This document shows, piece after piece, positions 19,250 to 20,974 of a stretch of 64,000 nucleotides of DNA (position 1 is its first letter; each line of letters begins with the position of its first letter). The stretch is from NCBI GenBank assembly GCA_024654625.1, contig JANLHB010000016.1, forward strand, positions 128,137 through 192,136. The letters run 5' to 3'. The notes beneath the pieces were generated by a model. It worked only from the letters and a program-made list of their open reading frames with translations. It had not been told where the DNA came from and did no database searches. Source of the DNA: Patescibacteria group bacterium. GTDB taxonomy: Bacteria > Patescibacteriota > Minisyncoccia > GCA-002772825. A program made the position numbers and the translations under genes.

Positions 19250-19465
19250 TTAAATTTTACCATGTTGTTTTATTGATTCTATCTGTTCTTTTGTGCCGAT
19301 AAATCTTGCCCCTCTCGGATCATGTGTCCATCTGCCGCAAAAACACCTGATCTGCCTTTTTCCTTCCGCATTGGTTCGTGTCTCAAATGCGGAATAAGTA
19401 TAAGCTCTCTTTCCGCGTTTGCGGGGAATCAAGCCCTTACATCGTTTGCATAAGATATGCAACAT
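19250..19465 (-). CDS. Small zinc-ribbon protein (C4-type)
   Basis: 71 aa with CKRC...CFCGRW cysteine pairs. It lies 3 nt downstream of the Mrr-like gene and is probably co-transcribed with it. Confidence 0.5.
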   Translation of the reverse strand: MLHILCKRCKGLIPRKRGKRAYTYSAFETRTNAEGKRQIRCFCGRWTHDPRGARFIGTKEQIESIKQHGKI

Positions 19466-19468
19466 AAT

Positions 19469-20974
19469 TTATTTTACACCTTTTTCTGATTTTCTTCTTT
19501 CTACAACGAAATCATAGGTTTTTTTGAACTCATAGGCGTTAAGGATTTTTTCTGCGTCTGGCTTCGCACCGATTTGTCGTTCGATCATCCACTCCGATTG
19601 CGGGTTCAGTTTAAGATAGTCGTTCACCTTTGCGCTTTCTACATGTGTAATTTGAAGGTAGTATTTTGAGCTGTCGTTTTGATCTTGATTTTCAATTTTT
19701 ACGAAATCTCTCTGTTTGAGAAAATTATACCGGCCATCAAGTTCATAGAGGGCAAAAAAACTTTCATTGCCATGTTTCAACATATTGAAATCCTGATCGC
19801 TTAGTGTTACCCCTTTTTTATCGTGAATTTTACCTATCGCAGGAGACGGAAATGATGCAGGAAATTTCTTCACTCGCTTGTACCCCTCAAGCGATAATTG
19901 GGAGTTTTCTCCTTTTTCTAAATACTCATAAGAACCCGTGAAAGGACCAAGGCGAGAATCAAAATCGACAAATATGTGCGGAAATTTGTGCCACTCATCA
20001 CCCTTGTCGTCTATGACGAGCATCTCGTCATAGCGGATCAAGCCATTTCTGATAAATGTTACTTGGTTGCGATGCGGCAAGTGATCCCAGAAGTCCTCGA
20101 TTTTTTCTCGTATTTTTTGTTGCTTCTCTTTCTCCTCTTGAGAATCGCTTTCCCGATAAATTAGATTGATTGCATCCGTAAAATCGTACTCTTTTTTTTC
20201 AGGGTCAACATATGCAAAAAATCTATGCATATTCACAATTAATCCCAGCGGATAGTATGCAACTGTTTTGTATTCGCGCCAGCGCGGGCGTTCTTTAAAA
20301 TCTTTATACTCATTTTGATATGGATATTTTGCATCCTTTGAATCTCGCAAAAGAACCGATCTGTGAAGTTTGCCTTCATCGCCAAAAATCCTATAGAGCT
20401 TATTTTTATTGCTGACGATTTGCCGTATTTCAGTAGCTCGGGATCGTCTTCTACTAACTAAGGAAATGCCAAAAAAAGTGAAGAGGATGCGGTCGTTTTT
20501 GGGGAGATGAAGCATGTCTTCCAGCTCTGCTTTACCCCAGAGATAGAATTCCATAACCCCTTTCTTTCGGAGCTCTTCGCGGAAAATATCATATGATTCT
20601 TTTGAAAAGTTTGCCGAAGCGGCAAGTATATATCCGTATGGCGGATTTTTAGGATCGGCATCGGAAATGATTTCTTTTACTTGCTTGGGACCGATTTCTT
20701 TTTCTCTCTTACCTTGAATCATCCATAAATTACCTGCCATAGGATGCACCTCTTCCGAGTTCTCGTCCTCGCTTTCTATCGGTGAAGCTTTATAGGTTTT
20801 TTCGTAAGCGCGAATATCAAATCCGCTATCATTACCGCTCCTTCCAGTTGCCTCAATCGTCTGCCAATCCTTATAGTCGTAAATCAGTTCCCGAATCAAA
20901 TCTTCAAAACGATGAGGGTCTAAATCCTCAAAGTGAATAGGTCCGTATGTTCGTGTGACTTTGGATTTAGCCAT
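19469..20974 (-). CDS. Mrr-catalytic-domain (PD-(D/E)xK restriction-endonuclease-like) N-terminus fused to an uncharacterised ~370-aa C-terminal region. Candidate defence nuclease.
   Basis: The N-terminus HRFEDLIRELIYDYKDWQTIEATGRSGNDSGFDIRAY...WMIQGKREK...YILAASANFSKESYDIF matches the Mrr_cat pattern FE.lv..ll...G......gDgGiD...vQcK. Confidence 0.6.
   Translation of the reverse strand: MAKSKVTRTYGPIHFEDLDPHRFEDLIRELIYDYKDWQTIEATGRSGNDSGFDIRAYEKTYKASPIESEDENSEEVHPMAGNLWMIQGKREKEIGPKQVKEIISDADPKNPPYGYILAASANFSKESYDIFREELRKKGVMEFYLWGKAELEDMLHLPKNDRILFTFFGISLVSRRRSRATEIRQIVSNKNKLYRIFGDEGKLHRSVLLRDSKDAKYPYQNEYKDFKERPRWREYKTVAYYPLGLIVNMHRFFAYVDPEKKEYDFTDAINLIYRESDSQEEKEKQQKIREKIEDFWDHLPHRNQVTFIRNGLIRYDEMLVIDDKGDEWHKFPHIFVDFDSRLGPFTGSYEYLEKGENSQLSLEGYKRVKKFPASFPSPAIGKIHDKKGVTLSDQDFNMLKHGNESFFALYELDGRYNFLKQRDFVKIENQDQNDSSKYYLQITHVESAKVNDYLKLNPQSEWMIERQIGAKPDAEKILNAYEFKKTYDFVVERRKSEKGVK

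Follow-up and report, generated by a model that had tools for sequence, protein, structure and literature searches.

Does a nuclease gene that is directly followed by a small zinc-ribbon gene work together with it, or does the nuclease stand alone? The question is raised by a stretch of 64,000 nucleotides from a Patescibacteria group bacterium (assembly GCA_024654625.1, contig JANLHB010000016.1, positions 128,137 to 192,136 of the forward strand), here called the window and numbered from its first letter. From the sequence alone, the original prediction had taken positions 19250-20974 for a two-gene candidate defence module. The larger of the two genes, which we call Mrr-X, encodes a Mrr-type nuclease of 501 amino acids (aa) and lies at 19469..20974 on the minus strand, as defined by its open reading frame (ORF), translation, homologues and AlphaFold2 (AF2) model.

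Comparison across loci showed that Mrr-X is solitary, without a conserved partner gene. In an all-against-all clustering of ~80 loci with flanks of +/-6 kb, no family was present in more than 9 loci, the most frequent one being the serine recombinases (9 loci). In the 109 proteins encoded directly beside Mrr-X, each Pfam or PADLOC family, including those of methyltransferases (MTases), occurred at most 3 times. We give about even chances to the explanation that we consider best, namely that Mrr-X is a restriction nuclease of a type IV-like kind which acts alone and probably depends on DNA modification. It would then be a stand-alone single polypeptide, independent of any MTase and horizontally mobile, that lodges in restriction-modification (R-M) and defence islands.

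Domains and spread of the Mrr-X family

Pfam, residue conservation and Foldseek together show a predicted N-terminal PD-(D/E)xK nuclease domain of Mrr type that is intact (Mrr_cat, PD-QxK variant; residues ~12-170, 20465..20941, minus strand). Pfam Mrr_cat (PF04471) matched residues 17-133 with E=1.2e-5 and a score of 25.9 bits, above the cutoff of 21, and the same family was found in 51 of 53 family members, with a best E-value of 6.1e-8. The Mrr_cat-like signature that had been read by eye in the first 130 aa therefore holds, since the three motifs quoted for it are present, FEDLIRELI at residues 23-31, GFDIRAY at residues 51-57 and MIQGK at residues 85-89. The putative catalytic residues E24, D53, Q87 and K89, whose roles we infer from sequence, are invariant in 53 sequences and map to the model elements H20-34, E52-58 and E82-89. 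When the shorter subfamily of ~390 aa described below was added, E24, D53 and Q87 were still invariant and K89 was at least 90% conserved. A Foldseek search with the full-length model gave weak matches to MspJI, which was the best one, and to EcoT38I (E~1e-3), and these vanished when the nuclease domain was left out.

We also compared this arrangement with EcoKMrr of E. coli K-12, which has an N-terminal winged-helix domain, Mrr_N, and a C-terminal catalytic domain. Both proteins carry the PD-QxK variant of Mrr_cat, are solitary and adjoin R-M genes. However, the domain order is reversed in Mrr-X, its other ~370 aa are unrelated, and neither Mrr_N nor any other winged-helix domain matched in 53 members, even at E<=5. 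An enzyme of the EcoKMrr type is thus ruled out by the N-terminal position of Mrr_cat (residues 17-133) and the lack of Mrr_N.

After a linker helix follows a conserved middle domain (residues ~198-378, 19841..20383, minus strand), delimited on the model and on conservation, which is predicted to be beta-rich with one long helix. Its signature reads RD..D..YP...DF...PRW, then D264, D322-x2-GD326, PH333 and F371-P372, and the conserved residues include R210, D211, Y217, P218, W232, D264, D322, G325, D326, P332, H333, F371 and P372. The AF2 model of the full-length protein reached a pLDDT of 84.3, while residues 178-501 modelled alone reached a pLDDT of 93 and a pTM of 0.88, the middle domain being above 90. 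No Pfam or PDB sequence match was obtained for this domain, and no Foldseek match in PDB or BFVD could be attributed to it. More generally, the ~370 aa beyond Mrr_cat, in which no motif had been recognized at first sight, gave nothing significant in Pfam, NCBIfam, PADLOC, PHROGs or PDB sequences, whether queried whole, in fragments, with 53 and 26 members, as a single sequence or as a 53-sequence profile. Two candidate explanations for the middle domain were rejected. An internal duplication gave no signal when the three domains were compared by hhalign. A second PD-(D/E)xK domain, like that of Upx with its two nuclease domains (PMC13099982), had only D257...D322-x-K324 in its favour and was without Foldseek support.

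The last ~120 aa (residues ~379-501, 19472..19840, minus strand) are predicted to form a beta-barrel that resembles the ASCH domain of the PUA superfamily, as indicated by Foldseek and by marginal profile matches. Against PDB, ASCH-family structures made up all of the top 12 Foldseek matches (3s9x, ZmASCH, 3iuw and 1t62), and 2kku ranked 15th; these PDB matches had probabilities of up to 0.99 and E-values of 0.011-0.40, with 107-135 columns aligned. Several top matches in BFVD were annotated as ASCH, activating signal cointegrator or DUF3850, and across both libraries the ASCH matches had probabilities of 0.87-1.00 and E-values of 0.005-0.4. When the domain profile was run against PDB sequences at E<=10, only two matches were returned, one of them being YqfB (1te7, E=0.81). 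The alignment pairs profile positions 32-111 with YqfB 21-101 and covers nearly the whole domain, including the C-terminal 'hEFK' strand. A direct comparison of the domain with YqfB by hhalign gave P=0.0045-0.0067; the 120 YqfB homologues collected for a better ASCH profile were 83-99% identical, and they moved P only from 0.0067 to 0.0045.

The family is large. At E<=1e-3, 1411 clusters of homologues were found, and among the matches listed nearly all were ~495-505 aa long and aligned over their full length, with identities of 50-91%. When species-representative genomes were scanned, 69 loci were found, which span CPR/Patescibacteria (CPR, candidate phyla radiation), Alpha-, Beta- and Gammaproteobacteria, Bacteroidota, Cyanobacteriota, Desulfobacterota, Nitrospirota, Verrucomicrobiota, Planctomycetota, Acidobacteriota, Actinomycetota, Atribacterota and Ignavibacteria, and the metagenome homologues include an Asgard archaeon. 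Identities of 50-60% are found across many phyla, and the closest relatives of the window protein are from Patescibacteria (Paceibacterota, Zambryskibacteria). Truncated or interrupted copies were seen in 7 of the 69 loci (L066, L069, L071, L073, L074, L075 and L077); the copy in L077, from Zambryskibacteria, retains only the first 48 codons, at 92% aa identity to the window. Identities above 50% across phyla, together with the patchy distribution and the seven broken copies, indicate horizontal spread and turnover of the kind typical of defence genes. No match to Mrr-X was found in phage records, and the three matches in plasmid records were either partial or belonged to the short form.

An exhaustive profile search with residues 198-501 returned 566 representatives and brought out a distinct subfamily of ~380-415 aa, consisting of the nuclease and middle domains and ending just past the FP..F motif, without the ASCH-like domain (for example P0212, P0226, P0227, P0242, P0252 and P0267, and positions 6001-7173 of L097). 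One copy of this short form lies on a plasmid of Agrobacterium salinitolerans, where it is annotated 'restriction endonuclease', near another restriction endonuclease and a transposase. Among the best 150 of the 566 representatives, the C-terminal module was never found on a different N-terminal domain, and the shorter matches were fragments or starts at the internal Met141. Because the short subfamily lacks the barrel and no other N-terminal fusion occurs in the best 150, the conserved unit, judging from these sequences, is the nuclease with the middle domain, which long and short forms have in common, and the ASCH-like barrel is an accessory.

Existing defence models do not cover this family. 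In PADLOC-DB v2.0.0, one of the checks that the original prediction had proposed, no system or type IV restriction endonuclease (REase) model was matched and only a partial match of 13 bits to PDC-S02 appeared (residues 15-56, E=0.0082); NCBIfam and PHROGs gave no match to Mrr-X.

A possible modification-dependent nuclease and its alternatives

If Mrr-X is a modification-dependent restriction nuclease, the ASCH-like barrel would hold a flipped-out modified base, as SRA, EVE and YTH readers do, the middle domain may provide DNA binding, dimerisation or the control (gating) of the nuclease, and cleavage by the Mrr domain would thereby be aimed at DNA with a non-host modification. In known modification-dependent enzymes, SRA, EVE and YTH domains read flipped modified bases (PMC6765204, PMC7897488, PMC12707154), and the literature counts domains of the PUA superfamily, ASCH included, among the known or predicted sensors of such nucleases (PMC12191111, PMC11037411, PMC4738411). 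Mrr-X is similar in plan to the PUA-superfamily modification-dependent endonucleases MspJI, PvuRts1I/AbaSI, VcaM4I and TagI, being a single polypeptide with a nuclease, a predicted small barrel and no cognate MTase. Its order, with the nuclease N-terminal and the barrel C-terminal, is that of PvuRts1I/AbaSI, where the nuclease is followed by the reader. It differs from all of them in that the barrel is ASCH-like at the level of the fold, not SRA or EVE, and in the extra middle domain of ~180 aa, and no sequence similarity of Mrr-X to these enzymes was found.

Other relatives by design were also considered. Fusions of REase and ASCH domains have been noted computationally by the Aravind group, in operons with Orc/Cdc6 and DndG-like genes (PMC10853773). 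Compared by description, Mrr-X resembles them in combining a REase fold with an ASCH(-like) domain predicted to bind modified DNA and in its mobile defence neighbourhoods, whereas no Orc/Cdc6 or DndG-like partners were found at Mrr-X loci. END nucleases join a type IIS-like nuclease to an inactive EndoIII sensor of hypermodified phage DNA (PMC12191111) and share with Mrr-X the plan of a solitary nuclease with a borrowed (in Mrr-X, putative) base-recognition domain and a location in defence islands. Both their nuclease and their sensor domain are different and without homology, and Mrr-X is neither an END nuclease nor Upx. Finally, the predicted fold of residues ~379-501 resembles that of ASCH proteins such as the N4-acetylcytidine amidohydrolase YqfB, ZmASCH and BapA, the last of which is a precedent for an ASCH-type barrel acting on hypermodified cytosine in a phage-defence operon (PMC13160076). 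In Mrr-X, unlike in these three, the barrel is fused to a nuclease and lacks Pfam ASCH membership.

As to the target, MTase genes often adjoin Mrr-X (N6/N4 classes, and C5 in one locus). For this reason the target is unlikely to be a simple host methyl mark; a hypermodified base of phage DNA is more likely and would also fit the company of GmrSD.

Several observations weigh against a modification-dependent activity, and most of them concern the barrel. Every Foldseek E-value for ASCH was above 0.001, and target-normalised TM-scores were mostly 0.38-0.49, with a maximum of 0.67 for one small target. Pfam ASCH (PF04266) matched none of 26 domain-only sequences at E<=10 and one of 53 full-length sequences, at E=0.95. 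Because each structure or profile match by itself falls short of significance and Pfam ASCH is not reached by any member, we label residues ~379-501 on the model as ASCH-like at the fold level and not as a member of the ASCH family. In the profile alignment with 1te7, K21 of YqfB aligns with E and T24 with Y, and neither position is conserved; together with E74, these are what we take to be the catalytic residues of the YqfB type. With other residues in place of K21 and T24, the domain probably binds its ligand without hydrolysing it. Judging from the ~390-aa subfamily, which does without the barrel, the core activity of the family cannot depend on the ASCH-like domain, and the better conserved part is the middle domain, which has no known function. 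In addition, housekeeping genes were present among the flanking neighbours. From the literature, ASCH was predicted, never shown, to be a reader of modified bases (PMC4738411, PMC11037411), a restriction enzyme that depends on ASCH has yet to be demonstrated (PMC11037411), and the better documented substrates of ASCH domains are RNA or nucleosides. The original prediction had named, as an outcome that would make this a familiar enzyme, a match of the C-terminal region to a well-characterised type IV sensor. This came out in part, as the last ~120 aa resemble a domain from the superfamily that supplies many type IV sensors; ASCH itself is not a well-characterised sensor, and the middle domain matched nothing.

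In the alternative that survives best, which we nonetheless regard as unlikely, no modified base would be read. Mrr-X would be an infection-triggered effector of the abortive-infection type, comparable to Avs, Shedu or Upx-like systems, in which a phage protein or a nucleic acid of unusual structure is sensed by the middle and C-terminal domains, and these unleash the Mrr domain on any DNA. Mrr-like N-terminal effectors do occur in such systems, chains of Avs4 and SPARDA were among the weak Foldseek matches of the full-length model, and a single-protein PD-(D/E)xK defence activated by a phage protein is documented (PMC13099982). A core made of a nuclease and a middle domain without a recognized fold, from which the short subfamily can drop the barrel, is in agreement with this idea, as is the co-location with CBASS (L003) and with TIR and KAP nucleoside triphosphatase (NTPase) genes (L006). 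On the other hand, Mrr-X contains no NTPase, STAND or repeat sensor, Foldseek gave no structural match to the sensor parts of Upx, Shedu or Avs, and the sole recognizable non-nuclease domain belongs to a superfamily that binds nucleic acids and bases.

A second alternative is a nuclease directed at RNA, in which the ASCH-like domain would bind modified or structured RNA and the PD-(D/E)xK domain would cut RNA, either as a defence that targets translation or in housekeeping RNA processing. The first prediction made for ASCH was that it binds RNA, ZmASCH, which is among the top structural matches, is a ribonuclease of single-stranded RNA, and YqfB acts on N4-acylcytidine (PMC11037411, PMC13160076); the housekeeping neighbours would also agree with such a role. 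However, the patchy distribution, suggestive of horizontal transfer, and the frequent pseudogenes speak against housekeeping, and the genomic company consists mostly of R-M systems acting on DNA. Moreover, the characterised Mrr_cat enzymes are, to our knowledge, all DNases. We consider an RNA target improbable.

The zinc-ribbon gene

The second ORF of the locus (19250..19465, minus strand) encodes a basic 71-aa protein with four cysteines (CxxC...CxC) resembling a zinc ribbon, identified from its translation, homologues and cysteine conservation. It starts 3 nt after the Mrr-X stop, on the same strand (gap 19466-19468), and in this the original description was accurate. Cys6, Cys9, Cys41 and Cys43 were conserved in all nine homologues inspected, and 23 homologues were found at 64-90% identity; by this conservation the ORF is a real gene, of a narrow family.

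We looked for the same pair elsewhere. In a tblastn search over all loci, the zinc ribbon was found after Mrr-X only in the window and in L001/L002, two contigs that carry one close relative (with Mrr-X 84% and the zinc ribbon 90% identical). It was absent from all 69 genome loci and from relatives in which Mrr-X is 74-81% identical (L009, L010, L078-L082), and no other small cysteine-rich ORF followed Mrr-X in loci other than the window and L001/L002. Thus the comparison of neighbourhoods that the original prediction had called for showed that the gene pair is not conserved.

Results also showed where the zinc ribbon is found without Mrr-X. It stands directly after GmrSD genes in L090-L093, after a PDDEXK_1 gene with a GmrSD_N-SLFN gene before it in L088/L089, after a 216-aa ORF, a putative REase, beside a LexA-S24-MTase gene in L094-L096, after a TaqI_C-like gene and a 203-aa ORF in L084-L086, after a RhuM/Fic gene in L087, and directly before a PDDEXK_3 gene in L083. 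The gap to the neighbouring gene was 3 nt for PDDEXK_3, 9 nt for PDDEXK_1 and 32 nt for GmrSD. Near-identical contig pairs aside, the flanks of these contigs have no mutual similarity, and the GmrSD proteins beside the zinc ribbon in other contigs, compared to see whether GmrSD and zinc ribbon could be an older pair that Mrr-X entered later, are distant, at <=25-26% identity.

Since the zinc ribbon is missing from the 69 loci and from close relatives, has 23 homologues against 1411 for the nuclease and has unrelated neighbours elsewhere, it is not a dedicated partner of Mrr-X; it is tied in general to defence or toxin genes, mostly nucleases. A module in which nuclease and zinc ribbon cooperate, the latter acting for instance as the inhibitor of a toxic nuclease or as its specificity factor, would explain the tight spacing, the shared strand, the retention of both genes in L001/L002 and the recurrence of a zinc ribbon with four invariant cysteines right beside nucleases. 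Given the same counts, we hold such a module very improbable. We speculate that the zinc ribbon may be a small nucleic-acid-binding regulator or inhibitor.

Genomic company and meaning of the family

Upstream of Mrr-X, on the same strand, lies a GmrSD-like type IV restriction gene of 573 aa (21033..22754, minus strand), supported by Pfam GmrSD_N (E=2.4e-30) and PADLOC HEC-05 (E=8.7e-48), with GmrSD_C (E=0.0022) under the cutoff. A divergent type III R-M cassette follows (23090..27762, plus strand; mod 23090-25210, res 25216-27762), assigned by Pfam (N6_N4_Mtase, E=2.7e-39; ResIII, E=3.7e-18), by PADLOC (MTase_III and REase_III) and by synteny. Both systems had been named beside Mrr-X in the original prediction, correctly so. 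A consensus scan, the only basis for this feature, found a terminator-like GC hairpin with a T-run at 21012..21027 on the minus strand; because it separates the GmrSD-like stop from the Mrr-X start, Mrr-X, with the zinc-ribbon ORF, may be transcribed apart from the GmrSD-like gene.

GC content falls to 0.37-0.44 between kb 18 and kb 28 of the window. Between the window (~18800-28270) and L001 (1-13501), the block of GmrSD, Mrr-X and zinc ribbon is kept at ~83% nucleotide identity and the outer flanks are syntenic, while the R-M cassette is swapped, with the type III system in the window against two N6_N4 MTases and unknown ORFs of 181 aa and 409 aa in L001. The region is a defence hotspot with cassette exchange. 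Downstream in L001, extra HD_4 and NfeD/S49 genes are present.

Other genes of the window were also annotated. Beside the defence island, at 28418-33105 on the plus strand, are a GrpE-like ORF of 176 aa (under the Pfam cutoff), an Hsp70-like protein of 838 aa with a long C-terminal extension and a 544-aa ORF without a Pfam match. Three giant ORFs, all on the plus strand (60-5690, 10167-15893 and 52037-59035), encode a 1876-aa Kelch-repeat protein, a 1908-aa protein with LPD38 and DUF6782 metallopeptidase-like domains and a 2332-aa product. The 1908-aa one is a polyvalent protein, a type usual in mobile elements.

Across loci, the recurring flank genes were parts of R-M systems, other nucleases (YhcG, RmuC, GmrSD), KAP NTPases and recombinases. 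By tblastn over all loci, the GmrSD-like gene was kept beside Mrr-X only in L001/L002. Dcm-Vsr and HATPase genes adjoin Mrr-X in L005, and a type III-like R-M system lies directly upstream of it in L080. In six loci of one subclade (L010, L017, L018, L061, L081 and L082), Mrr-X stands between a gene for an HSDR_N_2-N6_Mtase-Eco57I protein (~800 aa) and one for a type I-like S subunit (~470 aa), a placement that resembles that of other defence genes nested in type I R-M operons. A classical restriction subunit that is blocked by modification and needs a nearby MTase, for example as the R component for adjacent M and S genes, would account for these six loci, for the position directly after mod/res in L080 and for the MTases near Mrr-X in the window, L001 and L005, and it is the least probable of the alternatives, as most loci lack an adjoining MTase, no MTase family exceeded 3 of the 109 flanking proteins, the MTases present are of differing classes, the adjacent systems carry nuclease domains of their own (ResIII, HSDR_N_2) and unrelated defence genes are known to insert in type I operons (prrC; compare mrr/mcrBC, which adjoin hsd in E. 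coli K-12).

In conclusion, Mrr-X as a solitary type IV-like nuclease would follow a familiar principle with a known catalytic domain, while its sensor half is unrecognized and the family is large and uncharacterised. It has been overlooked by current defence annotation, being missing from PADLOC v2 and from the NCBIfam naming models, and its middle domain is a predicted well-folded, strongly conserved module without a known relative. A more far-reaching possibility, which we put forward tentatively and think rather doubtful, is that the nuclease and middle domains define an undescribed and widespread single-gene defence system, in which the trigger would be read by a new sensor fold and the ASCH-like barrel would be an optional tuner of specificity; separately, and at the same tentative level, the zinc ribbon may serve many type IV-like nucleases in CPR bacteria as a general accessory that regulates or inhibits them. 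The family is also a large and conserved test case for the long-standing prediction that ASCH domains read modified bases, with the ~390-aa form, which lacks the ASCH-like domain, available as a natural control and with members present in cultured strains of Acidovorax, Pedobacter, Mucilaginibacter, Ruegeria and Bradyrhizobium, among them Acidovorax sp. GW101-3H11 and Pedobacter antarcticus ATCC 51969. If it is modification-dependent, Mrr-X could serve as a reagent for mapping a DNA modification.

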